A DNA stretch of 64,000 nucleotides, taken from assembly GCA_963664115.2 (NCBI GenBank), contig CAXWPJ010000001.1, positions 53,844 to 117,843 of the forward strand, written 5' to 3'. Under the pieces are notes generated by a model that was not told the origin of the DNA, made no database searches, and was given only the letters and a program-made list of their open reading frames with translations. Below are positions 36,343-54,865 of the stretch, one piece after another. The stretch comes from Terriglobia bacterium (GTDB lineage: Bacteria > Acidobacteriota > Terriglobia > 20CM-2-55-15). The position numbers and the translations under genes are program-made. How positions within the stretch are numbered: position 1 is the first letter of the stretch; the number at the start of each line of letters is the position of its first letter.

Positions 36343-36449
36343 CTCCGGCGTTGTTGCTTGGCAGCCTGGCGAGGCGCTGCACCTCGGCGGGTGCTGCGAT
36401 CAGAGAATCGAGGGCCTGGACCACTTGTCCAAGACTCTGAAATCCACTG

Positions 36450-36483
36450 TCAACGCCTCACAAGTCACCTTCTCGGACGTTGA
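36450..36483. repeat. 34-bp palindromic dif-like site, copy A
   Basis: TCAACGCCTCACAA-GTCACC-TTCTCGGACGTTGA, followed by GAATTG as in copy B. Confidence 0.65.
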
Positions 36484-36492
36484 GAATTGCCA

Positions 36493-38742
36493 ATGTACGG
36501 AGGTTCGATCCGATTGCAACGAGTCCTTCATCTCGTTCTCACGTGCGGCTTGCTGTGTGCCGCATGGCCAAGGCCTGCAACAGGCCAAGTGCCTGACGCC
36601 GTCCCTCGCATCACAGTAGGTCGCACCGCGGAAGGGGAGCGCCCGATTATTGACGGACGCGTCGATGATGGAGTCTGGGTGGCCGCACAGCCATTCAGCG
36701 ATTTCATCCAGCAGGAGCCGAACGAAGGCGAGCCCGCCACGGAACGCACTGTAATCCGGTTTCTGCTTGACAGCGAGAACCTTTATATCGCAGTCATCTG
36801 CTTCGACTCCGAACCCGGCCAGATCATCGTCAGCGAGAGCCGCCGCGATGCCGATCTGGGCGATACCGATTCCATCCGGATACTGCTCGACACATTCAAC
36901 GACGGACAAAACGCGTTCGTCTTTGGAACGAATCCGTTCGGGATCGAGTACGACGGTCAGGTCATGGCCGAAGGCCAGGCCGGCCGTGGAGGGCAGGGAT
37001 TCAATGTGAACTGGGATGCCGACTGGGTCGTTGGCACTCAAATAACCGAGCGCGGCTGGGAGGCCGAGTTTGCCATTCCACTCAGGACCTTGAGGTATAA
37101 CCCGGGACAGGAGCGCACCTGGGGCGTAAATACCGTGCGCAATATTCGCCGTAAGAATGAACAGGTGTTCCTGTCTCGGGTACCCCGAGGCTATGACCTG
37201 AATAGGGTTTCCGTAGCCGGCAAACTCGATGGTCTGGACCTGCCGGCGCGGCGAGATCTGACGCTGTTGCCGTATGTATCCGGCTCCGTAATCGACGACA
37301 GAATCCTGCGACCCGACAACGCGCGCCGCAGCGGCGACGTCGGCTTGGATCTCAAGTGGGGCGTCCGCGCCGATCTCACGCTGGATCTGACGTTGAATAC
37401 CGATTTTGCGCAGGTTGAAGCCGACGAACAGCAGGTCAACCTGACACGCTTTCCGCTGTTCTTTCCCGAAAAGCGGCCGTTCTTCCTTGAAAATGCCCAA
37501 CTCTTTCAAGTGGGACAGGGTCGGACTGTCGATCTCTTCTTCTCACGGCGAATCGGCCTCTCACCCAACGGCGAACCGTTACCGATCCGGGCAGGCGCAA
37601 GGCTCAGCGGCAAATTGGGAGGATACAACGTCGGACTGCTCAATATGCAGACCGCTGAGAAGATAGACGAACGAACCGGACAGACGCTGCCCGCCAACAA
37701 CTTCACGGTGCTGCGCATCCAGCGGGAATTCGGCCGGTCCAACTTCGGGGCGATATATGTGGGCCGCGAGGCGCTCGGCGACCACGCGTCGGAGGACCCT
37801 TACAACCGCGCATACGCCGTCGATCTCGGCTGGCAGGCAACGACCAACGGGCGATTATCTGCGTTCTTCGCTCGAACGGATTCGCCTCCGAGCAAAGGCG
37901 CGTCCGATTACGCTGGCCGCGCGGCGTACTCCTACACGAACGAACTCTGGAGCGCCACTGGCGCTTATGCGCAAGTCGGCGATCGCTTCAATCCCGAAGT
38001 CGGATTCCTGCGACGGCGGGGCTATCGCCAGCTTGAAGGGCGCTTCAACCTCAGTTACCCGCCAGAACGGTGGCCGTGGATCCGCCGGATCCAGCCACAT
38101 GCCAACTTCAGCGCTTATTTCAACTTGGACGACGAGCTGGAAAGCTCACAGGGACACTGGCACGTTTTCGACATCAGGACTCAGACCGGTGCCCGATTCG
38201 GGTATCTTTTCGAGACACAGCAGGACCGGCCCAAGCGCCCGTTCACGGTGTACGAGGACGTCACAGGGCAGAGCGTTGCCATCCCTCCCGGCCATTACGC
38301 GTGGACCAGAGGCGTTTTCGAGGGAAACACGAACCTAAGCGCCCCGTTGAGCGTTGCCTTGCGGCATCGTATAGGTAGCTTCTATGACGGTGATTATCAC
38401 GGCTGGGAGCTCACCGTTCGGATGCGTGCGGGTGCAAGGTTGATATCCGAGATCGGGTGGGATCGTGACGATGTCACGCTGCCGGGCGGCAAATTCATAA
38501 ACGATCTGGTGCCGATTCGGGTGAGTTATGCGTTCACGAGTCTGGCAAGTCTGCAGGGATTGATCCAGTACAACCGTCAGACCTCGACGATTTCCTCAAA
38601 TGTCCGCCTTGCGTTGCTGACCCGCAGTAGCACGGGCTTATTCATCGTCTACAACGATCGCCGCGAGACTTCCTCCCTGACCCCAGACGGATTGCTGGGT
38701 CGGTCGTTCACCGTCAAGTACACTCGCCTGTTTGATTTTTAG
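36493..38742 (+). CDS. outer-membrane protein with CBM9-like N-terminus (DUF5916-like)
   Basis: P.IDG..DD..W, GWEAEFAIP, NTDFAQVEAD, F.EKRPFFLE, LFFSRRIG; ends in Phe as for a beta-barrel. Confidence 0.8.
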   Translation: MYGGSIRLQRVLHLVLTCGLLCAAWPRPATGQVPDAVPRITVGRTAEGERPIIDGRVDDGVWVAAQPFSDFIQQEPNEGEPATERTVIRFLLDSENLYIAVICFDSEPGQIIVSESRRDADLGDTDSIRILLDTFNDGQNAFVFGTNPFGIEYDGQVMAEGQAGRGGQGFNVNWDADWVVGTQITERGWEAEFAIPLRTLRYNPGQERTWGVNTVRNIRRKNEQVFLSRVPRGYDLNRVSVAGKLDGLDLPARRDLTLLPYVSGSVIDDRILRPDNARRSGDVGLDLKWGVRADLTLDLTLNTDFAQVEADEQQVNLTRFPLFFPEKRPFFLENAQLFQVGQGRTVDLFFSRRIGLSPNGEPLPIRAGARLSGKLGGYNVGLLNMQTAEKIDERTGQTLPANNFTVLRIQREFGRSNFGAIYVGREALGDHASEDPYNRAYAVDLGWQATTNGRLSAFFARTDSPPSKGASDYAGRAAYSYTNELWSATGAYAQVGDRFNPEVGFLRRRGYRQLEGRFNLSYPPERWPWIRRIQPHANFSAYFNLDDELESSQGHWHVFDIRTQTGARFGYLFETQQDRPKRPFTVYEDVTGQSVAIPPGHYAWTRGVFEGNTNLSAPLSVALRHRIGSFYDGDYHGWELTVRMRAGARLISEIGWDRDDVTLPGGKFINDLVPIRVSYAFTSLASLQGLIQYNRQTSTISSNVRLALLTRSSTGLFIVYNDRRETSSLTPDGLLGRSFTVKYTRLFDF

Positions 38743-38863
38743 TTGTCCGTTACAACCGTGCTTTGAAGACTTGCATCAATAGGTAACCGTTTCTCCCTTC
38801 AGATAAAGCAGATGCCTCGGTGATCCGTCGTTCTTGCTGTCTGTTCCGGAGTCAGCTAAGAGG

Positions 38864-38962
38864 CAGGGTTTCCTCATACTGCAAGGCGAAAACACAGATC
38901 CTCGGATCAATATCGTCCTCAATCGGTTTGAAGAACTGAAGAAAGGGATCCCCGTGCCCTAA
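38864..38962 (+). pseudogene. C-terminal fragment resembling acidobacterial Ser/Thr kinase-beta-propeller proteins
   Basis: QGFLILQGENTDPRINIVLNRFEELKKGIPVP* resembles the IxVVLNWFEELK tail (recalled, not searched). Confidence 0.55.
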
Positions 38963-38971
38963 TTTTCCGGA

Positions 38972-39005
38972 TCAAGTCCCGAGAAATCATCTTGTCGGAC
39001 GTTGA
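38972..39005. repeat. 34-bp palindromic dif-like site, copy B
   Basis: TCAAGTCCCGAGAA-ATCATC-TTGTCGGACGTTGA. Confidence 0.7.
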
Positions 39006-39121
39006 GAATTGAACGTACCACTTGTCCGGTTAGGGGGTTAGAACTAAGCCGCAGGCGCTCGGAGTCGGCGTACAGCAGATAGAGTCTGTCCCATAAAGTA
39101 GCGGTCATAAGGAGGTGTCTT

Positions 39122-40003
39122 ATGACCCAACTACGAGAACGGATGCTGGAGGAACTCCAGCGACGGAACTATTCCCCGGCCACGAGTCGTGGCTACATTC
39201 TGGCAGTCGAACAATTCGCGAATTACTTCGGCAAGTCTCCGGCCTTGATGGGAGCCGAGGAGGTACGGCGTTTTCAGCTGTACTTACTGACCGAAAAGAA
39301 GCTGGCGGCGAGTACGGTCGGGATGCGGACCTCGGCGATACGATTCCTTTACAAGAAGGTGCTGCTGCGACGTGCGGATCTGGAACTGGATGATCTGCCC
39401 ATGCCCAAGAGTGCGCGGAAACTACCCACGATCCTGGGTCCGTCTGAAGTCCGCCGGTTGATCCAAGCCGCATTGAGTCCGATGCACCGGGCCATCCTGA
39501 TGGTGCTCTACGGGACCGGGATGCGACGGGCCGAAGCCGCCGTGTTGAAGGTGGCCGACATCGACAGTGAACGGATGCTGGTGCATATCCGCGACGGGAA
39601 AGGGCGTCGGGACCGGGATGTCCCGTTGAGTCGCAATCTGCTTGAAGCGTTACGGGGGTACTGGTTATTGAAAAAGCCCGAGGTCTATCTGTTTCACAGC
39701 AGTGCAGGACACCGGGGCACGGATGCTCCGATCTCGGACAAGGTGGTCTGGCATGCCGTTCATGGGGCCGCCCAGCGTGCGGGTCTGACCCAGAGGATCG
39801 GTCCGCACACGCTACGGCACAGCTTCGCGACCCACCTGCTAGAGTCCGGGACCGACTTGCGCACGATCCAGCTCTTGATGGGACACAGTCGGCTCAGCGA
39901 TACCACGCTCTACCTGCAACTGTCCCGGCGCCATCTTCGAACCGCGCGCAATCCTCTGGATCAGTTGAAGCTTTCACCTGTGGTTAAGGATCCAAAGAAG
40001 TGA
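39122..40003 (+). CDS. tyrosine recombinase (Xer/integrase-like)
   Basis: Intact catalytic set: GMRRAE, GKG, HTLRHSFATH, LMGH, TTLY; AGGAGG RBS. Confidence 0.95.
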   Translation: MTQLRERMLEELQRRNYSPATSRGYILAVEQFANYFGKSPALMGAEEVRRFQLYLLTEKKLAASTVGMRTSAIRFLYKKVLLRRADLELDDLPMPKSARKLPTILGPSEVRRLIQAALSPMHRAILMVLYGTGMRRAEAAVLKVADIDSERMLVHIRDGKGRRDRDVPLSRNLLEALRGYWLLKKPEVYLFHSSAGHRGTDAPISDKVVWHAVHGAAQRAGLTQRIGPHTLRHSFATHLLESGTDLRTIQLLMGHSRLSDTTLYLQLSRRHLRTARNPLDQLKLSPVVKDPKK

Positions 40004-41184
40004 GCCGGCCACCCTTTGAGGTGGCTGACGTGATTCGCATCGTCGGAGACCGATTCCGACAACGGTATTTGAAAGCGCTGGCCTGGCCCCAGGTCAAGGT
40101 CCTCAACGCGATTACCCATTGCCGGACCGCCGCACTGGGCGGGAACCGGAAACGATGCGACCACTGTGGCCACCAAACGCTGGTCTACCACTCGTGCCGG
40201 AACCGCCACTGCCCGAAGTGCCAGACCAATGCGCGGAACACCTGGGTCGAGAAACGGCAACAGGAACTGCTACCGATCGGATACTTCCATCTGGTCTTCA
40301 GCCTGCCCCATCAGTTGATCCCATTGATCTGGCAGAACAAGAAGGTGCTCTATGCGCTTCTGTTCCGAACCAGTGCGGCGGCGCTGATCGAAGTGGCCCG
40401 AAACCCCAGGTATCTGGGCGGCGAGATCGGATTCCTCAGCATCCTGCATACCTGGGGACAAACCCTGCAACGCCATCCCCATATCCACTGTGTGGTTCCC
40501 GGTGGCGGACTGTCCCCGGATCACGACCGGTGGATCCACTCCTCCCGGACCGACTTCTTCCTCCCGGTCCAGAAGCTCAGCTACGTTTTCAGAGAAAAGT
40601 TTCTCGACGGTTTAGCCGAAGCCTTCGGAAACAAGACGCTCGTTTTCCATGGGGAGTGTCTGGAACTGGCCACCGAATCCACCTTCGAGCGGTTCCTCGA
40701 CGATCTGAAGGATCGGAACTGGGTGGTGTACGCCAAAGAACCATTCGGCGGACCCCAACACGTCCTTCAGTACCTGGCCCGCTATACCCATCGGGTGGCC
40801 ATCTCGAATCATCGCATCCTCGATGTCAACCAATCCGGCGTTACATTCCGCTGGAAGGACTATCGCCACAATGGCCGTCCACGAACAATGACACTCCAAC
40901 CCGAAGAGTTCCTCCGTCGATTCCTCCTGCATGTCTTACCGAAAGGCTTTCCCCGCATCCGGTACTACGGATGGATGGCAAATCGGAAACGCAAGACGAT
41001 GCTGGAACTCTGTCGGCACCTCTTAGGTCAGGAGTCCATCACCGAGCCGGAGTCCGAGGCGGGTGCTACCCCACCGGCACCGTGTCCGATCTGCCGGGGA
41101 CCGATGCGTCTGGTCGAGCGATTAACCGCGGCACAGCTCGCCGCTCTCGAATCAAAGGAGGTTCCAATTCAGGATAGTGCGTAG
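40000..41184 (+). CDS. IS91-family (Y2, HUH) transposase
   Basis: Zn-binding CDHC and SCRNRHCPKC, HTWG..L..HPHIH (HUH), YLARY, HVLPKGF.RIRYYG; overlaps the recombinase stop (GTGA). Confidence 0.95.
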   Translation: MSRPPFEVADVIRIVGDRFRQRYLKALAWPQVKVLNAITHCRTAALGGNRKRCDHCGHQTLVYHSCRNRHCPKCQTNARNTWVEKRQQELLPIGYFHLVFSLPHQLIPLIWQNKKVLYALLFRTSAAALIEVARNPRYLGGEIGFLSILHTWGQTLQRHPHIHCVVPGGGLSPDHDRWIHSSRTDFFLPVQKLSYVFREKFLDGLAEAFGNKTLVFHGECLELATESTFERFLDDLKDRNWVVYAKEPFGGPQHVLQYLARYTHRVAISNHRILDVNQSGVTFRWKDYRHNGRPRTMTLQPEEFLRRFLLHVLPKGFPRIRYYGWMANRKRKTMLELCRHLLGQESITEPESEAGATPPAPCPICRGPMRLVERLTAAQLAALESKEVPIQDSA

Positions 41185-41609
41185 CCATCGACACTCAACA
41201 ATTCCAGCCCAACGCGGTCGTCCAGACTGCATCGCCGAAGTGTGTCCAGACGCCAAAAACACGCGTGCTCAAGTGCCCTTTCGCTATATCCAACCCACCC
41301 CACTCGGGCGATCGACAGTGATTTTCCGCTACAACCACCCCCCACCATCACTGCGTCTCCCCGATTCAGCCTCCAATCCATGGATTGAAAACCCATAGGT
41401 CTTCTCGTTCCCGGCCGCGCCTGCGCCTCACTTCAAACCATTCTATCCGACATGCCCCGGCATCATTTTTTGTCACTGTCGGTGCCGGACCATCTCCGAT
41501 ACAAAACTGACGTTATACGTCCATGTGACCTGTTCGTTGAACTCAAGTCCCTTCAATCGTATTATGTAGCGAGGCAAGAGAGACATCACCTTCGAACGAG
41601 GTCACAACA

Positions 41610-41840
41610 TTGAATCGACTGGATTTCCATGAACTGCTCATAATATTCGTGATCGCAGTGTTCGTGTTCGGTCCGTTCAACGGAAAGCTGTCTCACAAGA
41701 TTGCGATTCAGTGATTCGACGGGTCGTTGCGGCTCGATCAACAGGATGAACCGACATTTGGAAAGGCTTTCTCTATAGCCATAGCTTTGCTCCTTGGCGT
41801 GATTCTCCTCGTTCAGTTCTGGCTCTGGAGCGCCAATTAA
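41610..41840 (+). pseudogene. small TatA-like membrane ORF interrupted by an in-frame TGA
   Basis: TTG start after GAGG; LNRLDFHELLIIFVIAVFVFGP, TGA at 41712, then the frame continues to a second hydrophobic helix. Confidence 0.5.
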
Positions 41841-41917
41841 GAGTAAGGTTCAGCGCGGCTGAAACTCGAAGACCGTAGTTGTTTAAACGAAACCCACCTG
41901 AATACGAGGAGATCACC

Positions 41918-42721
41918 ATGTCACACGCAGATGGTCCATGGCTTCGAATCCAGCTCCTTTACTTGACGCTGGGCGTGTTCCTGCTTCCGGGTTCCGCCCT
42001 GGCGCAGAGCGTTTTTACGCACGTGCACATGAGGGTGCCGGATACGACTGAGGCGGCGGTGTGGCATCAGGCGCTGCTCGGCGGCGAGGTAATCTCGCGT
42101 GGCCCTGGACAGGCTGTCCGGTATGGCAACGGCATGGTCATGACAATGCCGGCCGAAGGTGAGACGCCACCGAGCCAGGGCGGTGTCATCGATCACTTTG
42201 GCATCGCTGTTGAAGACGTCGCGGCTACCGTGGCACTCGCAAGGGAAATGGGCGCACAGATCCGGGACGAGCCGCGGGTCGGCATCACGGCATCGACTAT
42301 TGCGTTTATCGAGGATCCCTGGGGCACGCGAATCGAACTACTCGAGGACCCGGTCTACACGGGAGTGAATCACGTCCATATGATGGCGAGCGACGCGGAC
42401 GGCGTTCACGAATGGTTCCTTGAAGTGTTCGGCGGCGAGGATATTCCGGCGCGCGGCAAGGGGCAGTTTCATACCATCTTATATGGCGACTTATGGATCC
42501 AGATTTCGCAGGTCCCGGAGGGTAATGCGGCGCCGAGCCGCTACCGGTCACTCGATCACATAGGTTTCCGCGTGCCCTCGCTGGAAGAGTTCGGCAGAGT
42601 TCTCCAAGCCTCAGGATACGAACCCTACCTGGTCAGACCCAACCCGCCGGGCTCAGACTTGATGTTCTTCGAAGGGCCCGAAGGCATCCACTTCGAGATC
42701 GCGGAGGTCGTCGCCCCCTAG
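41918..42721 (+). CDS. exported VOC/glyoxalase-family protein
   Basis: HVHM, DHFGIAV, DPWG..IEL, DHIGF, GPEG..FE; GAGGAG RBS and signal peptide. Confidence 0.8.
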   Translation: MSHADGPWLRIQLLYLTLGVFLLPGSALAQSVFTHVHMRVPDTTEAAVWHQALLGGEVISRGPGQAVRYGNGMVMTMPAEGETPPSQGGVIDHFGIAVEDVAATVALAREMGAQIRDEPRVGITASTIAFIEDPWGTRIELLEDPVYTGVNHVHMMASDADGVHEWFLEVFGGEDIPARGKGQFHTILYGDLWIQISQVPEGNAAPSRYRSLDHIGFRVPSLEEFGRVLQASGYEPYLVRPNPPGSDLMFFEGPEGIHFEIAEVVAP

Positions 42722-42879
42722 CCGAGACCACGTGCGACCCGATGTCGGAAATGACATTTGGAATTAACATCGTCAACTTCGGCCAGGGAACGGGCCCTGA
42801 GATCTTCGGGAATAATGCGGCCCAGCGGGCCGGGGACTGGGATACAATTTCTGAATTCTTGCCGATTTAAGGAGATGTC

Positions 42880-44064
42880 ATGATGAACCGACGCCAACTT
42901 TTGGGCACGGCCGCAGGTCTTGCGCTGCTCGCCCGCCTCCCGAATGCCCGTGCGGCAACCTACGACCTGCTCATCAAAGGCGGCCGCGTCATCGACCCTT
43001 CCATCGGCCTCGACGGCATCCGTGACGTGGCCATCGTAGGGGGGCGCATCGCAGCGGTCGAAGCCAGCATCAGCGACGATGCCACGGAGACGATCGATGT
43101 GCGTGGCAAGATCGTCGCCCCGGGTTTGATCGACATCCATACCCACGCGGGTCGCGACCTGGAAGCTCCGGCGCTGGCGCTCAAGGACGGCGTTACGGGC
43201 TTCGTCGATGCCGGATCGGCCGGCGCCGATAACATCGACGACATCGCCGCTGTCCTCCGGGCAGCACCACAAACTGCTTGCGCTCTGATCAACATCGCGC
43301 GCACGGGCGTCGTGTCCGGCGGCGAACTCAAGGACATCAACGCCGCCAATGTATCCCTAACCCGTGGGGCCATAGCCCGCAATCGCGACGTGGTTGTCGG
43401 CGTCAAGGTGCGGCTCTCAGAAAGCGTGGTTGGCAGTTACGATCTCGAGGCCCTGCGGCGTTCGCAGCAAGCGGCAGCGCCCTTCGATCTCCCCGTGATG
43501 ATACACGTCGGCCAGAATTTCTCGCCCATGCGTGCCATTCTGCCACTGCTCAAGCGCGGCGACATCGTCACGCACATGTACGCGCCGCCGCCAAACAGCA
43601 TTCTCGACGAGCAGGGCCATCTCTTCAGCGACGTCGCTGCCGCGCGTCGCCGCGGTGTCACCTTCGACTTTGGTAACGGAGTTAACGGCCACTTCACATG
43701 GGACATGCTGGAGCGCGCGACCGGGCAGGGCTTCTGGCCCGACACTTTGTCCACGGATTGGAACGTCTTGTCCCCCACTACAGGTGTCGTCGACTTCCCG
43801 AACGTCATGTCGAAGCTCTTGATGGTCGGCATGCCGCTTTCTGAAGTCGTGGCATCTGCGACGACCCGTCCGGCGCGCGCGTTTCGGGCGTTCGAGGATC
43901 GCGGCACGCTGAATGTGGGTGCGCCGGCCGACGTGGCGATCATGGAGCTGCGTGAGGGGGATTTCGAGTTTGTCGACAACTACCAAGGCACGCGGAACAG
44001 CCGCGAGCGGCTGTTCCCTTTCGAGACGGTGCTCGACGGCAAGCGCGTGCCAACGGCGGCTTAA
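42880..44064 (+). CDS. Tat-exported amidohydrolase (dihydroorotase/deacetylase-like)
   Basis: NRRQLL Tat motif, PGLIDIHTH, GVKVR, MIH, THMY, STD. Confidence 0.85.
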   Translation: MMNRRQLLGTAAGLALLARLPNARAATYDLLIKGGRVIDPSIGLDGIRDVAIVGGRIAAVEASISDDATETIDVRGKIVAPGLIDIHTHAGRDLEAPALALKDGVTGFVDAGSAGADNIDDIAAVLRAAPQTACALINIARTGVVSGGELKDINAANVSLTRGAIARNRDVVVGVKVRLSESVVGSYDLEALRRSQQAAAPFDLPVMIHVGQNFSPMRAILPLLKRGDIVTHMYAPPPNSILDEQGHLFSDVAAARRRGVTFDFGNGVNGHFTWDMLERATGQGFWPDTLSTDWNVLSPTTGVVDFPNVMSKLLMVGMPLSEVVASATTRPARAFRAFEDRGTLNVGAPADVAIMELREGDFEFVDNYQGTRNSRERLFPFETVLDGKRVPTAA

Positions 44065-44107
44065 GCGTTGACTTGTGGTCGGCGGATATCCCCGCGGGTC
44101 TCGGCGA

Positions 44108-45259
44108 TCACAGCTCGGGCCGTGGCCCCATCCCATTAAAGACGAACTTCTGGACCCGCCGGTTGACGGGATCGAGTGGCGTGACCTCCGTAACGTAGAG
44201 GTTGCCTTCCGAATCCACGTCCATGTGGTGGAGGGTGCCGAACTCGCCGGGCGCCGATCCCCAGCGGCCGAACGAGTACAGGATCTCGAGCGTTTCGCGT
44301 TCGAGCACCATGACCCGCGCCTGACTCCGGTTGCCGACGTACAAGAAGCGCTGCTCCGGATCCTCGGAGAAGGCCGCGCTGGCGGCCGTCGTGCCGTTAC
44401 CACACTCCGGAGCCAGGCAGTCCCGACCGATGAACACCTGCGAAACGTACTCCCCTTCGGTGGTGAAGACCTGCACCCGCTTTCCGGCACGGTCGGAGAC
44501 GTAAACAAGGCCGTCGTTGGACACCTTGGCCGCGTGCACCGGAGGGGCGAACTGCGGGGGGCCGGACCCCTCTTGCTCCTCGGCCCACGACGGATCCGTC
44601 TCGACGTCGGCCGCTTCGTTGCCGAACGCGCCCCACATCCGCCTGAAGTCCCCCGTGTCGGCGTCATAAACAATGACACGCCGGTTGCCGTATCCGTCCG
44701 CAACGAAGAGCTCATTCGTCGGCGGATGGACCCAGACGTCTGCGGGCCGGCCCAGGTTCGCAGTGTCGCTGTTGCCCCGGCTCTCGCCGGACTGACCGAT
44801 CTGCATGACGAATTCCCCACTCATCGTGAACTTGAGCACCTGGTGGTCATCGGGACCGTTGCCTCCAACCCAGACGTAATCGTTGTGGTCCACGAATATG
44901 CCGTGTTCCGACCCGGGCCAATCGTAGTCCGGGTCCGGCCCGCCCCATCCCTGCTGGAAGTTGCCTTCAGGGTCGAACTCGAGTACCGGCGGTGCGGCCA
45001 TCGACGCCTCTTCCGGCCCCAGCGAACCCGGCCGTTGCAGCACCCACACGTGATCCCTGTCGTCCACGGCTACGCTGGCCACGACGCCCAGGACCCACCC
45101 GTCGGGAATCGTAGGCCAGCTTGGATCGACCTCGAACCTCGGCACGTCGCCGAGGGCCGACTCCGGGGCGGTCACAATCTCGTCGCCGTCGCGGCTGAGG
45201 GCGATGACCAACGCGAGCGACGCCACTAGTGCCACGCCTATCCATATCGTTCGACTCAT
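44108..45259 (-). CDS. NHL-repeat beta-propeller protein
   Basis: FEVDPSWP, ADGYGNRR, YVSDR...RVQVF, G..PGEF...H, RVQKF; GGAGG RBS. Confidence 0.85.
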   Translation of the reverse strand: MSRTIWIGVALVASLALVIALSRDGDEIVTAPESALGDVPRFEVDPSWPTIPDGWVLGVVASVAVDDRDHVWVLQRPGSLGPEEASMAAPPVLEFDPEGNFQQGWGGPDPDYDWPGSEHGIFVDHNDYVWVGGNGPDDHQVLKFTMSGEFVMQIGQSGESRGNSDTANLGRPADVWVHPPTNELFVADGYGNRRVIVYDADTGDFRRMWGAFGNEAADVETDPSWAEEQEGSGPPQFAPPVHAAKVSNDGLVYVSDRAGKRVQVFTTEGEYVSQVFIGRDCLAPECGNGTTAASAAFSEDPEQRFLYVGNRSQARVMVLERETLEILYSFGRWGSAPGEFGTLHHMDVDSEGNLYVTEVTPLDPVNRRVQKFVFNGMGPRPEL

Positions 45260-45751
45260 GACCGACCTCCCGGAAAATTGTTTCCACTGCTGTTAGTACG
45301 TTCTCGGGCACCATCTGCAATGTCGCGAGTTCACCGTTGTCTGCGGATGAGGGCCAAACCGTCTCCGAGTCCGTTATACGCCAGGACGTGCTGCTGTGTC
45401 CCTCAATATATCATTGCAGCAAGGTGTCACGGATTCTGACCCAAGGCGATAGTACTTCCCGCAAAATTCAAAACCTCAAGCCGTCGATCTCGATCCGAAG
45501 CCTGATTCTCCACGTTTGTGCGTCCCCGGTCACGGGTCGTGCTGATCTCAATCTACGCCCGGGTGCGTCGCGCTGCCCCACTGCGGCAATTTGTGTGGGT
45601 CCTGCGGGATGGCACGACATGCATGCCGCTGAAATCATTGAAAACGCGGCGCTGGCAACGAAATTGGTTATTATTACGGGTTGATATTACGGCCTGCAGC
45701 TTACAGTGCCTGGCCGGCTGGAGATCGACCCATCCCCGGAGCGCATGGTTG

Positions 45752-46977: not shown

Positions 46978-47681
46978 ACATCCTCACGATCGCCGCCCAC
47001 CCGGATGATGTCGAGCTGACCTGTGGCGGTACGCTGCTCAAGATGGTCGACCAGGGCTACTCGGTCGGAATCCTCGACCTGACCCAGGGTGAAATGGGGA
47101 CGCGGGGCACTCCTGAAATCAGAGCCGAGGAAGCGGAAGCCGCCCGGGCCGTCCTGGGTGCCCGCTTTCGAACCCGGATGAACCTCGGGGATTCCCAGCT
47201 GACGGCCTCGATCCCAAACAGAATGGCTGTGGCGCAGGAGATCCGGAATCGGCGACCGCGTACGGTGATCCTCCCCTACTGGGAGGGACGTCACCCCGAT
47301 CACACCACCACGGCGACTCTGGGTTATGAGGCCTGTTACGCAGCTGGCCTCAAGAAGGCGGATCTTCAGGGAGAACCGCACCGTCCCCACAAAATCCTGT
47401 ATGCGACCATCTACTGGGATGTGAACCCAACGTTTGCCGTCGACATCAGCCCGTACTTTGAAAGGAAGCTGGAAGCGATCAATTGTTTCGCCTCTCAGTT
47501 CCATGGAGACATGTCGGAGGTCGAAAAACTCTTTCCCGCCTGGGCACGCCTGATCGATCGTATCCGAACTCAGTGCCGTTTTTATGGGCATCAACTCGGG
47601 GTGGAGTACGCTGAACCTTATGTAGTAAAAGAACTTGTGGCGATTGAAGATGTTGTTGCGATGCCTGTTGCTTCCGTTTGA
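46965..47681 (+). CDS. bshB1: bacillithiol biosynthesis deacetylase (PIG-L family)
   Basis: AHPDDVE, DLTQGEMGTRG, RHPDH, G..YAE. Confidence 0.85.
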   Translation: METVDILTIAAHPDDVELTCGGTLLKMVDQGYSVGILDLTQGEMGTRGTPEIRAEEAEAARAVLGARFRTRMNLGDSQLTASIPNRMAVAQEIRNRRPRTVILPYWEGRHPDHTTTATLGYEACYAAGLKKADLQGEPHRPHKILYATIYWDVNPTFAVDISPYFERKLEAINCFASQFHGDMSEVEKLFPAWARLIDRIRTQCRFYGHQLGVEYAEPYVVKELVAIEDVVAMPVASV

Positions 47682-47876
47682 ACGCCGTCTCGAACAAAAT
47701 ACTTCGGGAGGCTTTAAACCAAGGAATCGGTAATCCTGTCTGCCTTAGGTAAGACGTTCCTGAAGAAGAATATGACAAAGGTTCTTCCAAAGTTGAGTTT
47801 CAAGCGTCCAATTACCTTGACACCGCCGAACCGCGGTCATTACGATGAGTAAATCTGTTTCCTGGAGAACCGAACC

Positions 47877-48962
47877 ATGATCGACAAGCTGATCCGGTTG
47901 ACGATGGCCGCAATCTTCTTGGTCGTGACAACTGCCAGTCCGGCGCTTGCTCAGGACAGACCCAAGAACGGTGACATCGAAAACATAGGAAACCGCGACA
48001 TCAACTCGGGGTTCTTCAGCTGGAACTTCACCTCGCTCGAGAAGGAAATAGCTCTTGGACGCGGGATGGCGGCTGAGCTGGAACGTCAGGTTCGCCTAGT
48101 TGATGATCCGGTAATCAACGAATACGTCAATCGCGTCGGCCAGAACCTCGTTCGCAACTCCGACGCCCAGGTGCCCTTCACCTTCAAGGTCATCGAAGAC
48201 GACACCATCAACGCGCTGGCTCTGCCCGGTGGATTCGTGTTCATTAACACGGGCGTTATCTTGAGTGCCGACGAAGAGTCCGAACTGGCCGGTGTGCTCT
48301 CTCACGAGATTGCCCATGTTACGGCGCGCCATGGCACCGAAAACGCGACCAAGGGCCAGATCATCAATTGGGCAACGATTCCGCTGATCTTTCTCGGGGG
48401 TGTCGCTGGTTTTGGCATCCGCCAGGCCGCTGGCTTCGCCATTCCGGCCCAGTTCATGAAGTTCAGCCGTAGCGCAGAGGAAGAAGCCGATTTTCTGGGG
48501 AGCCAGTACGCCTACAAGACTGGCTATGACCCGAACGCGGCCGTAACATTCTTTGAAAAGATGCAGGCACGGGAGACGGCAAAACCTGGAACGATTTCCT
48601 CGCTGTTCTCGTCGCATCCTCCCACGAAGGACAGGATTGAAAAGACCCAGCGGAACATCGCACGGGTCTTGCCCGAGCGCGATCGATACGTCCTGACGAC
48701 CTCGGAATTTCTCGACGTCCAGCAAAAGCTGATCGACTACGAGAACCGACGCCCGGTCGACGAAGAGGATGACAGTCGCCCCAGCCTGAGACGGCGGACC
48801 GCGGCTTCCCCCGATAGCGGTGACGATGATAGGGCAGACGAAGAGATCATCACCAGTGGGGAGGATGAGCGGCCCCGGCTGGAGCGCCGTGACGAGGACG
48901 ATCCCGACCGTGAACCGCTCGAGGACGACCGTCCGGTCTTGAGACGACGCTCTCGCGACTGA
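47877..48962 (+). CDS. M48 family metallopeptidase
   Basis: INALALPGG, HEIAH, E.EAD, SSHP; acidic tail with RPxLxRR repeats. Confidence 0.9.
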   Translation: MIDKLIRLTMAAIFLVVTTASPALAQDRPKNGDIENIGNRDINSGFFSWNFTSLEKEIALGRGMAAELERQVRLVDDPVINEYVNRVGQNLVRNSDAQVPFTFKVIEDDTINALALPGGFVFINTGVILSADEESELAGVLSHEIAHVTARHGTENATKGQIINWATIPLIFLGGVAGFGIRQAAGFAIPAQFMKFSRSAEEEADFLGSQYAYKTGYDPNAAVTFFEKMQARETAKPGTISSLFSSHPPTKDRIEKTQRNIARVLPERDRYVLTTSEFLDVQQKLIDYENRRPVDEEDDSRPSLRRRTAASPDSGDDDRADEEIITSGEDERPRLERRDEDDPDREPLEDDRPVLRRRSRD

Positions 48963-48986
48963 ACGTTTTCCCAACGGAAGAGGATT

Positions 48987-49018
48987 AAAAAGGGTGGCCC
49001 CTGTGGCCGCCCTTTTTT
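48987..49018 (+). terminator. intrinsic terminator
   Basis: AAAAAGGGTGGCC-CCTGT-GGCCGCCCTTTTTT. Confidence 0.8.
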
Positions 49019-49046
49019 CTTGGGAGTTCCCCCGCCCGAATGGGTA

Positions 49047-49076
49047 TTGATACCAAGACCATGCAGCGGGTATCAT
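49047..49076 (+). promoter_or_regulatory. putative sigma70 promoter of tRNA-Asp
   Basis: TTGATA-18 nt-TATCAT, 14 nt before the tRNA. Confidence 0.45.
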
Positions 49077-49090
49077 CTCCACTTGTCTAC

Positions 49091-49164
49091 GGGGTCGTAG
49101 TTCAGCTGGTTAGAACGCCGGCCTGTCACGCCGGAGGTCGCGAGTTCGAATCTCGTCGGCCCCG
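49091..49164 (+). tRNA. tRNA-Asp(GTC); CCA not encoded
   Basis: GGGGTCGTAGTTCAGCTGGTTAGAACGCCGGCCTGTCACGCCGGAGGTCGCGAGTTCGAATCTCGTCGGCCCCG folds as a cloverleaf. Confidence 0.96.
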
Positions 49165-49528
49165 TTTAGATGCAGCAAGTTAGCGGGGGAGCAATCCCCC
49201 GTTTGCTGTTTGGGTGCAGATAGGGTGCGGATTTGATGAGTAAACGCGCTGTGGATTCTGAAACTCCGGTACCGTCTCAACGCTCAATTGTCCGCGCGGC
49301 TGAAGTGGCCGATGAGATCCAGCTTTCATATAGAGCACGCTTTGCAGAGACTGCCGAGAACGGTCCTCTCCTCAACCTCGACGCTAAACTCTCCGACCTG
49401 TGGTGGAAACTTCTGTACCAAAACGACTTCGAGGATTGGATGGTTACGCATGCGAAAGACACGTTCAAGTTTCAGTGGCTGAAGGTCCTGGTTGCACTCA
49501 GAAATCGAAATCAATCTTTCTTCTACAG

Positions 49529-49769
49529 TTACGGAATCCCTTCGCGTCGGCACAGCTCTGCGATGCTCTCTTCGCCTCGTAACCCTTCCAACACGATCCG
49601 CACCTTCTCTTCAGACGAGTACTTCTTTCGCGTCTTTCGACGGATCTCCCGTACCCGCTTCTCTGTCGACACTTTCTCTCTCATTCGATCCTCCTTCAGA
49701 TCGTTCCGATCAGAATAGTGTCTCTTAGTTTTTTAGCGGTTTCTGTCCGAAATGCTCTGACGGGCTACA
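49529..49769 (-). mobile_element. truncated IS3-family element (left end plus OrfA fragment)
   Basis: ORF 49684-49529 MREKVSTEKRVREIRRKTRKKYSSEEKVRIVLEGLRGEESIAELCRREGIP (HTH) with AGGAGG RBS; TG-starting end TGTAGCCCGTCAGAGC at 49769. Confidence 0.8.
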
Positions 49770-50015
49770 TATCCTTCATCTCGGACTCCTTCTTTACACA
49801 TGTGCGTGTGTTTAGCCCGCTTTATTGCAAGGCTTCTTAATGACTTTGGCACTTTAGATGCCGATTAAGTCAAAGGAGGAGTCCATCTCATCAACAATGT
49901 CGTTTATCAGGACCGGACAATTACAGGACCTGAGAATTTAATAACGCCTAAATCCCTCCCTTAGTATTCTTTACCGAGATTTTTACGGTTCTTTCAGCGA
50001 CACACTTTAAACACG

Positions 50016-50135
50016 GAATCTGGCACCCAACTCGGCCACTACGAGATCAGCACACTCCTAGGTAAGGGTGGAATGGGAGAGGTGTGGCGGGCGCGTGACA
50101 CGAAGCTGGGTCGTGAAGTCGCAATCAAGACGCTG
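50016..50135 (+). pseudogene. N-terminal fragment of a Hanks-type Ser/Thr kinase
   Basis: [40 protein letters not shown] (Gly loop and VAIK); no start codon; similarity ends abruptly. Confidence 0.85.
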
Positions 50136-50700
50136 CGGATAAGCGGTATAAGCAGGGTCCGACGGCTATGGCAGCACTGGCAAGGTCGTCGTATGAGTGT
50201 TATTTCAATCCGCGCGCAGCCACAGGCCGTCGCGCGGCCAAAATGAAGAAGGGGATCAAGGAGAGAAGCGCAAAATAAGCCAGAGCCGCTGCGGAAATGA
50301 AACACTGGGTCTGAACAAAGATGTGGAATGTATCTTCGAGGACACCGTTATTCAGCCTCTGAACTCTTGAATGCATGAATGGGTACTGTGAGCCTAAGGA
50401 GAATCCGTCCGTTTTGAGGACGGACTCCGCTGGCGCCGAGACCAGTCATCAATAACTTAGAGCTGGTAGAGGGCGTCAACAACTCTTCCAACCAGCTTAA
50501 CTTGAAAGGACCGAACCCCTTGCATAAAGCGTTCACGGCCGGGCGTTCACCAAGTCTCGGCGTCAATGGCCCATGACGGATTGACTTTGGTTCGCATCTC
50601 GGTAAAAAGAGGGAAACAGGGAAACGCGTTATTATTGTGATGCCGTGATACTCCCCTTTGACGCGCCTAGGTGGCAACTCATAATCAGCGAGGACAAGAC

Positions 50701-51330
50701 ATGCACGAAGCCAGTAAGGCGATCATGCGCCGAATGCACGACAGCAGGTTCGCGACCAGATATTTTGTCGGTGATGGCATAGACATCGGCGCTGGTCCTG
50801 ACGCTCTAGTCCAATATGAGGAGCAGTTTCCGCTAATGCGCAGTTGCCGCCTGTGGGACATTGAAGAGGGCGACGCGCAACTGCTGGCATTGGTAGCTGA
50901 CAGCTCGTTGGACTTTGTTCACTCCAGTCACTGTTTGGAACATATGCGCCACCCAAGCGAGGCTTTGCTCCACTGGCTGCGCGTGCTCAAACCCGCCGGG
51001 CATGCCGTCATCACCGTTCCCGATGAAGACCTCTACGAACAAGGCGTATTCCCTTCGACGTTCAACACCGACCATAAATGGACTTTCACTATGCACAAGG
51101 CCACCAGCTGGTCTGCCAGGTCTGTCAACCTGATGGACATGCTCACGCAATTCTCCGACATTGCACAAGTCGTCAAGATCGAGCAACTTGACGCCACTTT
51201 CCGCTTTGGACTGCCCCGAATTGACCAGACCCTCACTCCTGTGGCCGAGTGCGCGCTGGAGTTCATTTTGCGCAAGCGTCCGGCCAACGAAATTGCCCGG
51301 AAGGGCCGCTACCCCGAGCTGTCCGCGTGA
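50701..51330 (+). CDS. class I SAM-dependent methyltransferase
   Basis: GIDIGAG, GDA, DFVHSSHCLEH, RVLKPAG, VPD. Confidence 0.85.
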   Translation: MHEASKAIMRRMHDSRFATRYFVGDGIDIGAGPDALVQYEEQFPLMRSCRLWDIEEGDAQLLALVADSSLDFVHSSHCLEHMRHPSEALLHWLRVLKPAGHAVITVPDEDLYEQGVFPSTFNTDHKWTFTMHKATSWSARSVNLMDMLTQFSDIAQVVKIEQLDATFRFGLPRIDQTLTPVAECALEFILRKRPANEIARKGRYPELSA

Positions 51331-51345
51331 CCGGGCAGACTCATC

Positions 51346-52128
51346 ATGAAAAAAACTTGCTTAATTCATCAGCAACAGGGCGTCGGCGACCTCATCTTTA
51401 TTCAGAAGATCGTGAGGCAATATTCTGAAGATGGCTTCAATGTCATCTGCCCGATTCTGAATCAACACAAAGTTATCCGGAACCTTTTCTCAACAGAGAG
51501 CGCCCGCTATCCATTGATTTCGGACAAAAGCGCGCTGCTTGAGTCTTTTGATTTTGCTCAAGAACACGTCTACCTGGTTACCCAGTGCGAAACTCACTTC
51601 GGTGATTCCCTTTTTACGAAGCCGATTGATGCCGGTGATTTCGTTTTTCTGGCTCTGGGCCCGTCCTATAAGAGATTGCCCGCCGATGGACTGATGGAAT
51701 CGAAGTATCGACTCGCCGGTATAGACTCCTCTGGCTGGCAAGATTTCGTGTCCATGAAAAGAAATCAGTCCAAGGAGAATTCCCTGCTCAGGCTCCTGGG
51801 TGTTGATAAGAACTCGAAATATACTTTGATCAACGAGCATTCGAGCAATGGCCGCATCGAAATCCAGGATCCGGGCGACGCCATCTACATGCGGCAAATC
51901 AAGGGATACACGCTATTCGATTGGCTCCCTCTCATAGAGGCTTGCAGCCGGATAATCACTGTCGATACCTCCGTCGTGTTACTCGCTGAAGTGTTCCTTA
52001 ATAAAGACATACCGGCGTACCTTGTTTCGAAATGGCCGAGGGGTGACCCCTCATACATCGACTTCCAACGGAACCTGAAGTTGCCCTGGAAATTTGCTCC
52101 GCACGCGTCCGACTTGAAGATCGATTGA
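51346..52128 (+). CDS. hypothetical protein, glycosyltransferase (GT9)-like
   Basis: N-terminal GVGDLIF and C-terminal ITVDTS...AE resemble heptosyltransferase-fold motifs. Confidence 0.55.
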   Translation: MKKTCLIHQQQGVGDLIFIQKIVRQYSEDGFNVICPILNQHKVIRNLFSTESARYPLISDKSALLESFDFAQEHVYLVTQCETHFGDSLFTKPIDAGDFVFLALGPSYKRLPADGLMESKYRLAGIDSSGWQDFVSMKRNQSKENSLLRLLGVDKNSKYTLINEHSSNGRIEIQDPGDAIYMRQIKGYTLFDWLPLIEACSRIITVDTSVVLLAEVFLNKDIPAYLVSKWPRGDPSYIDFQRNLKLPWKFAPHASDLKID

Positions 52129-52650
52129 AAGACTCCGACGGACTCGGGCGGATAAGTAAAACAAGCAGGGTTTGCAGTGCAATGGATGGCAAGATGCCGG
52201 CAAAACTGTCGCCGTTGGGCTGTTATATTTAGGGCAGAAGGCAGAACGACGGTTGGGCCTTAGTTCGTTGATTGCCGGGGTGGCGTGCGCGCAGGCGGTT
52301 TGCTCTCGACTTGGCCGTATAACGTCAGTTTTGTATCGGAGATGGTCCGGCACCGACAGTGACAAAAAATGATGCCGGGGCATGTCGGATAGAATGGTTT
52401 GAAGTGAGGCGCAGGCGCGGCCGGGAACGAGAAGACCTATGGGTTTTCAATCCATGGATTGGAGGCTGAATCGGGGAGACGCAGTGATGGTGGGGGGTGG
52501 TTGTAGCGGAAAATCACTGTCGATCGCCCGAGTGGGGTGGGTTGGATATAGCGAAAGGGCACTTGAGCACGCGTGTTTTTGGCGTCTGGACACACTTCGG
52601 CGATGCAGTCTGGACGACCGCGTTGGGCTGGAATTGTTGAGTGTCGATGG

Positions 52651-53835
52651 CTACGCACTATCCTGAATTGGAACCTCCTTTGATTCGAGAGCGGCGAGCT
52701 GTGCCGCGGTTAATCGCTCGACCAGACGCATCGGTCCCCGGCAGATCGGACACGGTGCCGGTGGGGTAGCACCCGCCTCGGACTCCGGCTCGGTGATGGA
52801 CTCCTGACCTAAGAGGTGCCGACAGAGTTCCAGCATCGTCTTGCGTTTCCGATTTGCCATCCATCCGTAGTACCGGATGCGGGGAAAGCCTTTCGGTAAG
52901 ACATGCAGGAGGAATCGACGGAGGAACTCTTCGGGTTGGAGTGTCATTGTTCGTGGACGGCCATTGTGGCGATAGTCCTTCCAGCGGAATGTAACGCCGG
53001 ATTGGTTGACATCGAGGATGCGATGATTCGAGATGGCCACCCGATGGGTATAGCGGGCCAGGTACTGAAGGACGTGTTGGGGTCCGCCGAATGGTTCTTT
53101 GGCGTACACCACCCAGTTCCGATCCTTCAGATCGTCGAGGAACCGCTCGAAGGTGGATTCGGTGGCCAGTTCCAGACACTCCCCATGGAAAACGAGCGTC
53201 TTGTTTCCGAAGGCTTCGGCTAAACCGTCGAGAAACTTTTCTCTGAAAACGTAGCTGAGCTTCTGGACCGGGAGGAAGAAGTCGGTCCGGGAGGAGTGGA
53301 TCCACCGGTCGTGATCCGGGGACAGTCCGCCACCGGGAACCACACAGTGGATATGGGGATGGCGTTGCAGGGTTTGTCCCCAGGTATGCAGGATGCTGAG
53401 GAATCCGATCTCGCCGCCCAGATACCTGGGGTTTCGGGCCACTTCGATCAGCGCCGCCGCACTGGTTCGGAACAGAAGCGCATAGAGCACCTTCTTGTTC
53501 TGCCAGATCAATGGGATCAACTGATGGGGCAGGCTGAAGACCAGATGGAAGTATCCGATCGGTAGCAGTTCCTGTTGCCGTTTCTCGACCCAGGTGTTCC
53601 GCGCATTGGTCTGGCACTTCGGGCAGTGGCGGTTCCGGCACGAGTGGTAGACCAGCGTTTGGTGGCCACAGTGGTCGCATCGTTTCCGGTTCCCGCCCAG
53701 TGCGGCGGTCCGGCAATGGGTAATCGCGTTGAGGACCTTGACCTGGGGCCAGGCCAGCGCTTTCAAATACCGTTGTCGGAATCGGTCTCCGACGATGCGA
53801 ATCACGTCAGCCACCTCAAAGGGTGGCCGGCTCAC
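52651..53835 (-). CDS. IS91-family (Y2, HUH) transposase
   Basis: Same protein as 40000-41184. Confidence 0.95.
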   Translation of the reverse strand: MSRPPFEVADVIRIVGDRFRQRYLKALAWPQVKVLNAITHCRTAALGGNRKRCDHCGHQTLVYHSCRNRHCPKCQTNARNTWVEKRQQELLPIGYFHLVFSLPHQLIPLIWQNKKVLYALLFRTSAAALIEVARNPRYLGGEIGFLSILHTWGQTLQRHPHIHCVVPGGGLSPDHDRWIHSSRTDFFLPVQKLSYVFREKFLDGLAEAFGNKTLVFHGECLELATESTFERFLDDLKDRNWVVYAKEPFGGPQHVLQYLARYTHRVAISNHRILDVNQSGVTFRWKDYRHNGRPRTMTLQPEEFLRRFLLHVLPKGFPRIRYYGWMANRKRKTMLELCRHLLGQESITEPESEAGATPPAPCPICRGPMRLVERLTAAQLAALESKEVPIQDSA

Positions 53836-54713
53836 TTCTTTGGATCCTTAACCACAGGTGAAAGCTTCAACTGATCCAGAGGATTGCGCGCGGTTCGAAG
53901 ATGGCGCCGGGACAGTTGCAGGTAGAGCGTGGTATCGCTGAGCCGACTGTGTCCCATCAAGAGCTGGATCGTGCGCAAGTCGGTCCCGGACTCTAGCAGG
54001 TGGGTCGCGAAGCTGTGCCGTAGCGTGTGCGGACCGATCCTCTGGGTCAGACCCGCACGCTGGGCGGCCCCATGAACGGCATGCCAGACCACCTTGTCCG
54101 AGATCGGAGCATCCGTGCCCCGGTGTCCTGCACTGCTGTGAAACAGATAGACCTCGGGCTTTTTCAATAACCAGTACCCCCGTAACGCTTCAAGCAGATT
54201 GCGACTCAACGGGACATCCCGGTCCCGACGCCCTTTCCCGTCGCGGATATGCACCAGCATCCGTTCACTGTCGATGTCGGCCACCTTCAACACGGCGGCT
54301 TCGGCCCGTCGCATCCCGGTCCCGTAGAGCACCATCAGGATGGCCCGGTGCATCGGACTCAATGCGGCTTGGATCAACCGGCGGACTTCAGACGGACCCA
54401 GGATCGTGGGTAGTTTCCGCGCACTCTTGGGCATGGGCAGATCATCCAGTTCCAGATCCGCACGTCGCAGCAGCACCTTCTTGTAAAGGAATCGTATCGC
54501 CGAGGTCCGCATCCCGACCGTACTCGCCGCCAGCTTCTTTTCGGTCAGTAAGTACAGCTGAAAACGCCGTACCTCCTCGGCTCCCATCAAGGCCGGAGAC
54601 TTGCCGAAGTAATTCGCGAATTGTTCGACTGCCAGAATGTAGCCACGACTCGTGGCCGGGGAATAGTTCCGTCGCTGGAGTTCCTCCAGCATCCGTTCTC
54701 GTAGTTGGGTCAT
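53832..54713 (-). CDS. tyrosine recombinase
   Basis: Same protein as 39122-40003. Confidence 0.95.
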   Translation of the reverse strand: MTQLRERMLEELQRRNYSPATSRGYILAVEQFANYFGKSPALMGAEEVRRFQLYLLTEKKLAASTVGMRTSAIRFLYKKVLLRRADLELDDLPMPKSARKLPTILGPSEVRRLIQAALSPMHRAILMVLYGTGMRRAEAAVLKVADIDSERMLVHIRDGKGRRDRDVPLSRNLLEALRGYWLLKKPEVYLFHSSAGHRGTDAPISDKVVWHAVHGAAQRAGLTQRIGPHTLRHSFATHLLESGTDLRTIQLLMGHSRLSDTTLYLQLSRRHLRTARNPLDQLKLSPVVKDPKK

Positions 54714-54822
54714 AAGACACCTCCTTATGACCGCTACTTTATGGGACAGACTCTATCTGCTGTACGCCGACTCCGAGCGCCTGCGGCTTAGTTCAAACCG
54801 GCCATGAGGACAAATGTCGTTC

Positions 54823-54853
54823 TCAAGTCCCGTATCATCTTGTCGGAAGTTGA
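54823..54853. repeat. palindromic dif-like site, copy C (left arm 3 nt short)
   Basis: TCAAGTCCCGT-ATCATC-TTGTCGGAAGTTGA. Confidence 0.7.
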
Positions 54854-54865
54854 GAAATGTCCTAG

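Follow-up and report, generated by a model that had tools for sequence, protein, structure and literature searches.

The closest described counterparts of the system reported here are the dif modules of Acinetobacter, whose C and D modules follow one another in alternation, separated by sites of inverse orientation, and whose exchange depends on spacers that match (accessible part of PMC13141974); islands of dif modules also exist in chromosomes (accessible part of PMC12907356). Xer-type gene modules have so far been described mainly from Acinetobacter plasmids. We analyzed a 34-bp repeat, built of two arms around a 6-bp spacer, in a 64,000-bp stretch of a Terriglobia bacterium genome (GenBank assembly GCA_963664115.2, contig CAXWPJ010000001.1, positions 53,844 to 117,843 of the forward strand; hereafter the window, numbered from its first base). 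In two genera of Terriglobia, gene blocks that turn up beside changing neighbours have this repeat at their joints, and in this other phylum one site organises about 12% of a chromosome. A tyrosine recombinase probably exchanges DNA between sites that have the same spacer. That the repeat derives from dif and is the site of a tyrosine recombinase, the likeliest enzyme being the host XerC (with or without XerD) and not the recombinase of a neighbouring insertion sequence (IS) of the IS91 family, is the reading we prefer, and we give it about an even chance of being right. No published description of this site family was found in the literature searched, which left most subscription papers and all supplements outside its coverage. 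If recombined by the host Xer enzymes, the family could be a large, undescribed cousin of the known gene-cassette systems.

As far as pdif and dif modules are described in the accessible text of PMC13141974, PMC12907356 and 10.1101/2022.12.17.520857, the family resembles them in its two arms and 6-bp spacer, in the one or few accessory genes per module and their arrangement in arrays, in the apparent exchange between matching spacers, in the lack of a dedicated recombinase by the arrays and in the targeting of its sites by insertion sequences. Modules in different contexts that end at sites are a further shared property. Unlike pdif, the 34-bp site has neither a recognisable XerD arm, so that the order XerC arm, spacer, XerD arm is not found, nor the CATAA/TTATG core. 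Its copies are mostly direct repeats (235 of 310 segments) in place of the inverse alternation of C and D modules, it has only two main spacers, its approximately 265 sites are spread over about 570 kb of chromosome, and gene-free linkers of 55-148 bp join the two spacer classes. The elements that target it are of the IS110, IS30 and IS91 types and an intron, in contrast to the IS1202 named for pdif sites in the accessible sources. Because two defining pdif features fail, the XerD arm and the alternation, we do not class the family as a member of pdif. Compared with the acidobacterial chromosomal dif (accessible part of PMC3025954), the 34-bp site shares the 6-bp spacer and has a XerC-like right arm; unlike the single canonical host dif on contig C2, which lies at the GC-skew switch (G000:C2:108118-108141, where G000 is the source genome), it is dispersed and without a XerD arm.

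The preliminary description of this DNA had also considered an integron-like system. The likeness to sedentary chromosomal integrons and attC clusters that have no integron integrase (CALINs) lies in the long co-oriented arrays, often with one gene per segment, and the sites, like integron attC sites in the accessible text of PMC9229058, are invaded by IS110-family elements and group II introns. Unlike in integrons, the site is short, conserved in sequence and without hairpin covariation, no IntI or attI is linked to it, inverted sites occur, and many segments hold their own leader, several genes or reversed genes. The family is not an integron in the strict sense. Its gene-sized segments do form co-oriented arrays; the true IntI lies more than 190 kb from any site, and the 34-bp site is not attC-like.

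The source genome comprises 4.89 Mb in 12 contigs. With a position weight matrix (PWM) built from 130 seed sites and a full-site cut-off of 20 bits, we found 171 full-site matches above the cut-off in the genome and none in a hexamer-block shuffle, so chance is excluded as their source; the catalogue reaches 265 copies once half-sites are added. The consensus is TCAAGTCCTGA(G/C/T)AA-ATCATC-TT(C/G)TCGGAC(G/C/A)TTGA. Of 143 strong sites, 7 lie inside open reading frames (ORFs) predicted by our own crude gene caller, in a genome that is 85% coding. The sites are strongly clustered, with 206 of the 265 in runs of at least three with gaps of up to 5 kb (38 expected), and 27 clusters of at least three sites cover 568 kb. 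Among 323 intact sites at all loci examined, the spacer is ATCATC in 243 (class 1) and ACGACA or ACGACC in 27 (class 2), the rest being rare variants and hybrids. Class-1 sites usually come after a gene end, and their orientation is uniform within clusters (for example 12/12, 12/12, 9/9 and 8/8), with mixed orientation in two clusters, on contigs C6 and C11; class-2 sites are usually inverted, with a promoter-side leader at the left arm. The two classes are tied to different flanks and hardly mix: a kinase gene end precedes 138 of 279 sites with an ATC-type spacer and a promoter-side flank precedes one, while for ACG-type spacers the promoter-side flank precedes 33 of 45 and the kinase end one. 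The sites delimit 310 segments of 0.2-8 kb, of which 235 lie between direct repeats, 58 have the left arms inside and 17 the right arms inside; another 39 short ones also have the right arms inside, and most of these are linkers, about 57 or 148 bp long and devoid of genes, between a class-1 and a class-2 site. Array orientation showed no clear tie to local GC skew, clusters of both signs being present. Duplication of the repeat upon insertion, in the manner of CRISPR arrays, was considered and set aside: 128 adjacent pairs of sites differ at 3.41 positions against 3.52 for random pairs (p=0.22).

The commonest flanks of the sites are the two ends of one Ser/Thr kinase-PD40 gene, which matched at full length only six times. 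Its 5' pieces (n=54) carry a site within 200 bp of the gene start in 42 cases, at a few fixed distances, and their breakpoints scatter between 32 and 803 bp; its 3' pieces (n=125) lie within 60 bp of a site in 77 cases. Kinase homologues were counted in 87 of 301 genomes, G063 and G189 included, and the best homologues of 29 other acidobacterial genomes, outside the two genera and taken as one best locus per genome and excluding the loci of those two, had a site at 0 of 29 loci. The site is therefore not simply part of the kinase gene, and many sites have unique flanks. The cargo is diverse; many of its proteins start with a sequence that resembles a signal peptide by eye, and the promoter leaders were likewise described by eye. 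One gene per segment was found in 60 of 127 direct segments, with 44 of these 60 co-oriented.

That the sites stand at the joints of shuffled gene blocks, as had been proposed from the first three copies, is borne out by recurring segments with different neighbours and by shared DNA that ends at sites; the sites also lie between genes. Whole site-to-site segments recur in 14 groups that comprise 39 of the 310 segments, two of the groups being IS elements and several being block duplicates. A 1289-bp segment is present in three copies at 99.7% identity with both neighbours different between C2 and C6/C11, a 715-bp segment is present twice in G000 and once in G001 with different neighbours, and segments of 389, 684, 400 and 316 bp behave likewise. 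Across species, we compared 1.07 Mb of relatives' loci, selected around sites, and reduced 698 matches to 135 by removing multi-copy DNA. Of the 267 ends of shared DNA, 33 are no more than 30 bp from the centre of a site in both genomes and 23 in one genome; near arrays this is 33 of 194 ends at sites in both genomes against 2.5% for a random array position, an enrichment that is inflated because BLAST alignments run through the site and its paralogous flanks and because it was around sites that the relatives' loci had been selected. Low-copy repeats within the genome have 138 ends, of which 24 coincide with a site on each side and 65 are near sites on both sides, part of these repeats being IS or intron copies. 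The junction C11:55501 consists of the upstream flank of C6:39794(+) and the right arm and downstream flank of C6:27135(-), joins two ATCATC sites and is exactly the recombinant that an inversion between two inverted sites would be expected to yield. One array of G000 maps in pieces to scattered places in relatives, often at 92-98% identity, against collinear core DNA at 74-85% (about 84%), and its blocks appear to have been shared recently between species.

The window was found to hold the following features.

34178..45661, no strand: variable region between mazG and ribF, holding sites A and B and copy 1 of the IS91-family element
35326..36342, plus strand: metallo-beta-lactamase-fold gene (Pfam Lactamase_B), the module upstream of site A
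36450..36483, plus strand: site A, with left arm, variant spacer GTCACC and right arm
36493..38742, plus strand: DUF5916/CBM9-like gene (Pfam PF19313, PF06452), cargo between A and B
38900..38962, plus strand: 3' end of the Ser/Thr kinase-PD40 gene, which flanks sites on the left-arm side more often than any other sequence
38972..39005, plus strand: site B, class 1, spacer ATCATC
39041..41514, plus strand: IS91-family element copy 1 (PF00589, PF04986, NF033538), left end 35 bp from site B, with a tyrosine recombinase gene at 39122-40003 and a Y2 transposase gene at 40000-41184
49090..49165, plus strand: tRNA-Asp gene; synteny with relatives stops about 50 bp beyond it
49898..49917, minus strand: site D, class-2 half-site (left arm and ACGACA), its right arm replaced by an IS110-type end
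50015..50136, plus strand: kinase gene, 5' remnant; it comes after the leader that follows site D
50671..52128, plus strand: cargo, a methyltransferase gene and a 260-aa ORF with no Pfam match
52321..54794, minus strand: IS91-family element copy 2, left end 28 bp from site C
54823..54853, plus strand: site C, class 1, left arm 3 bp short
54861..56718, minus strand: IS1380-family element (NF033539), inserted 7 bp beyond site C
56741..57843, plus strand: kinase-type leader followed by a DctP solute-binding gene, 94% identical to the copy at locus L017

Sites A, B and C have the positions and sequences given in the preliminary description, each followed by the hexamer it had listed (GAATTG at A and B, GAAATG at C). 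The DUF5916 ATG does begin 9 nt 3' of site A (the frame opens at TTG 36487 in the ORF list), the stop codon of the kinase C-terminal remnant lies 9 nt 5' of site B, and a relaxed scan found no site in the first 36 kb of the window. Other statements required amendment. The palindrome described is imperfect, with one out-of-register base per arm. The three sites do form a family, whose extent was underestimated, since it numbers 265 full and half-sites genome-wide; a fourth site in the window, the inverted half-site D with the second spacer class, had been missed. The proposal that A and B bracket a mobile unit gained no support, as the unit showed neither a second copy nor an empty site that was precise, and contigs of four other runs contain site A between its two flanks. 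In a read-support check of these four runs, contigs ended inside site B and the sole joint across A-B was 7 bp out of register. The end of the lactamase gene, the atypical left arm and the GTCACC spacer of site A recur at other loci of G002 and G004 with different downstream DNA; the lactamase module travels with the left arm and spacer of site A. The variable region between mazG and ribF is absent in G002 and G007, and G001, G003 and G004 have other DNA in its place. The L017 copy of the leader and DctP stretch comes after a class-1/class-2 site pair. Rfam at gathering thresholds found nothing but tRNAs in the window.

Judged from the genomes compared, the site appears to be restricted to two sister genera of Terriglobia. 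Allowing up to three mismatches, 6 of 41 genomes matched (G000 130, G002 91, G003 42, G001 10, G007 1 and G017 1). A looser pattern matched 9 of 35 family genomes, namely G000, all four of its congeners and four of the five genomes of the sister genus, and none of the nine other genera among these 35; it found 52 sites in G003. A variant spacer, ATCCGG, occurs in G004. Viral contigs gave no match to the site, and metagenomes gave 11 short loci of the same architecture with no new context; runs labelled sponge metagenome contain 0.38-0.58 of the sampled words.

The IS91-family element next to sites B and C measures 2.47 kb and consists of a recombinase gene overlapping a gene for a Y2 HUH transposase (NF033538, 437 bits against a cut-off of 125; PF04986). 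Its ends were set by comparing the flanks of its copies. In the genome there are seven copies whose proteins are identical (a contig end cuts one of them), along with two more distant relatives and one fragment; the seven have a constant right end and different flanks, and the element has fixed ends without terminal inverted repeats. The accessible text on the ISShvi3 group (10.1101/542381, PMC9229058) describes the same two-gene layout of a tyrosine recombinase upstream of an IS91-type transposase, a comparison that concerns the neighbouring element and not the site family; here the left end lands in or beside the sites. Other selfish elements insert in the site as well, with 7 of 8 left ends for IS110-a, 6 of 8 for IS110-b, 9 of 13 for IS30 and 3 of 3 for a group II intron, just as selfish elements insert at attC and pdif sites according to the accessible parts of PMC9229058 and 10.1101/2022.12.17.520857. 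The intron, about 700 nt and without a long ORF, enters four bases into the right arm (L165:2366-3050 and 5489-6180; L004:3817-4500). The right end of the IS91-type element (window 41425-41514 and 52321-52410) folds on the bottom strand as a long imperfect hairpin that ends in GTT and is reminiscent of attC, and it is partly tandem-duplicated in two copies elsewhere. Beyond the left end (window 54795-54822 and 39006-39040) stand AA/TA, a word of 6 bp (ACCNNN) and a box similar to TAYTCGGACAA; this is a third type of core, and it is often found ahead of left arms. A 96%-identical element of G013 uses similar targets without any 34-bp site.

The link to the host Xer enzymes comes from the right arm and from the distribution of recombinases. 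Scored as a XerC arm with a PWM from 15 acidobacterial dif sites, the right arm, when reversed, ranks above 99% of random 14-mers that end in AA, and its variable base shows the same C/T alternatives as natural XerC arms; the right arm is identical to the host XerC arm at 8 of 11 positions and to other acidobacterial XerC arms at up to 11 of 14. One left-arm variant matches a XerC arm at 12 of 14. The preliminary description had likened both arms to the left arm of the Bacillus subtilis dif; the right arm is XerC-like, the left arm is not significantly so, and no XerD arm is present. The 9/11 match it gave between the site C arm and a Bacillus subtilis dif arm is correct by letter count, the reference sequence being its own. 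Across the site-rich genomes, G003 included, XerC and XerD were the only tyrosine recombinases found in all. We therefore regard the host Xer system as the most economical candidate. Should it act on the site, Xer would recombine far from dif and on sites without a XerD arm. Extra dif-like sites, two in G002 and one in G017 (L227-L229), may be the att sites of Xer-exploiting elements.

A number of results weigh against this assignment or against a simple crossover in the spacer. The left arm is not significantly XerC- or XerD-like, being reached by 9-12% of random sequences (9% for XerD), and neither arm has the CATAA/TTATG core of the host dif. The arms score a median of 0.5 and -7.9 bits against 16.6 for true dif arms, and no residue in the recognition helices of XerC or XerD separates the site-bearing genera. 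The genome of G003 is 95% complete, so a recombinase may have been missed there. Sites that share both flanks are identical in 10 of 10 cases, which stem from some three duplicated blocks; in pairs with one flank of 97% identity or more and a different second flank, the arm adjoining the shared flank is not the same in 5 of 8 and 5 of 10 pairs. With the threshold relaxed, 19 pairs with a common upstream flank show agreement of the left arm at 0 of 31 informative positions, and 31 pairs with a common downstream flank show agreement of the right arm at 13 of 60, the pairs not being independent. Because the arms do not stay with their flanks, conversion across the site or homologous exchange must be added to the spacer crossover. 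Most mosaic joints are off-site, as are 211 of the 267 cross-species ends, the enrichment of the others being inflated as stated above. The edges of the mazG-ribF variable region (34178-45661) are not sites, and precise excision of A-B was not found in the four other runs. The C6/C11 junction is known from the assembly alone, in which the two contigs may be two strain haplotypes.

Among the alternatives, it is unlikely, in our estimation, that a mobile tyrosine recombinase acts on the sites in trans, chiefly the IntI-related enzyme of the IS91-type element or else a 316-aa recombinase encoded on contig C5. The left ends of IS91-type elements lie within 55 bp of a site in 8 of 10 cases, a zone that makes up 0.6% of the genome, and three are fused exactly at the arm/spacer boundary, and the two copies of G002 and one of G004 are fused likewise. 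In NCBIfam, the 293-aa recombinase in the window matches integron integrase best (187 bits, below the cut-off of 265, in two stretches), and the recombinases of such pairs are, in the accessible text of 10.1101/542381, the closest IntI homologues, without the IntI insertion. The preliminary description had named this adjacent enzyme as one possible driver; it proved to be the first gene of the IS91-family element, and from genome to genome it occurs independently of the sites. A recombinase of 96% identity is present in G013, which has no sites, G017 has 46 matches and one site, and in G003, with its 52 sites, the IS91-type recombinase, the Y2 transposase, IntI and the C5-type recombinase were all not found. 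In relatives the IS91-type end also joins unrelated cores and attC-like sequences, and these elements therefore look like parasites of recombination sites. For the C5 enzyme speak the identical class-2 sites on both sides of its gene; against it, other genomes encode eight homologues, none of them near a site, G002 and G003 yielded no copy of it, and none of 31 other recombinase loci (G001-G004, G007), where a recombinase ORF was recognised in about half, has a recombinase gene between two sites. Host serine resolvases are at least 6 kb from any site. We consider it similarly improbable that the repeat is a passive homology anchor, spread with the kinase family, with the 35-150 bp of repeat and shared flank as the starting point for recombination, either homologous or illegitimate and homology-facilitated, for example after DNA uptake. 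Arm variants unlinked from both flanks, breakpoints that are mostly off-site at IS ends or short shared words, the scattered ends of the kinase 5' remnants and the high identity of array DNA between species with diverged cores would all fit such an anchor. It does not explain why conservation is much higher in the 34-bp core than in the several flank families, unrelated to one another, that surround it, why the geometry of arm, 6 bp and arm and the XerC-like arm are kept, or why the spacer classes stay apart although the arms are homologous; the many sites with unique flanks and the site-free kinase homologues of the 29 other genomes also argue against it.

Recombination of the sites as attC-like single-strand hairpins by the IntI of the genome is very improbable. 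attC hairpins have an out-of-register base, and the 34-bp sites have one such base per arm, stand in co-oriented arrays and share G000, G001 and G002 with a true IntI. Against this, the folding is weak at about -4 kcal/mol (native arm pairs -4.0, shuffled -3.8), the positions that would pair do not co-vary (p=0.10) and the consensus left arm has no AAC core. IntI was found in 12 of 35 family genomes and not found in G003, G004, G007 or G017, all of which have sites, and the IntI locus has attC-like sites of its own with no 34-bp site within 190 kb. That locus (G000:C9:711000-715600, L166; TIGR02249, 440 bits) is distinct from the 34-bp system and has, behind the integrase gene, ORFs that resemble cassettes and one or more typical attC-like hairpins. 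A transcription-factor operator, to which the few fixed distances of sites before kinase starts (42 of 54) would correspond, is scarcely credible: the sites are as often just past stop codons (77 of 125 kinase 3' pieces), precede unrelated genes in both orientations and coincide with rearrangement joints, and none is near the core genes of the window.

Under the reading of the repeat as a dif-derived site served by host XerC, we propose that crossover between same-spacer sites would excise, insert or invert modules. To our knowledge, the origin of modules is an open question for integron cassettes and dif modules alike, and the kinase remnants show how new modules may be made: foreign DNA would replace the middle of an existing module through IS activity or off-site joins, and the two ends of the ancestral kinase module would remain as remnants. 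The shuffling of arm variants might, speculatively, follow from one strand exchange, branch migration and resolution by the host. CTX-phage integration is a precedent for XerC-only single-strand exchange. The accessible part of PMC5357621 holds nothing on XerC-only reactions. A more far-reaching version, which we advance as a tentative and rather doubtful idea, is a third class of chromosomal cassette system, neither integron nor pdif, in which XerC without XerD or FtsK would act on two XerC-type arms and shuffle hundreds of modules, the spacer classes and linkers would set which joints are exchangeable, and cassettes would be born by capture of foreign DNA inside the ancestral kinase module. 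If this were true, the genesis of cassettes would be visible in the sequence.

The gene of the 316-aa tyrosine recombinase (G000:C5:52079-53250; L001:5060-6270) lies between two identical inverted class-2 sites, kinase leaders read outward on both of its sides, and the unit looks invertible. A short repeated element that starts with CGGATAAGCGG (window 50137-50200; L001:6530-6620) occurs at several truncated kinase starts and at other mosaic joints. Long near-identical blocks in the assembly of G000 (C6:1-46165 and C11:1-83160; C2:1-14093 and 153240-167331; the start of C5 and the end of C9) may be strain haplotypes or assembly overlaps, and contig C3, considered as a circle, was not evidently one. 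The short shared word TGGTTATTAT borders the mazG-ribF variable region at window 34160-34180 and 45660-45680 and is possibly the att site of another element.

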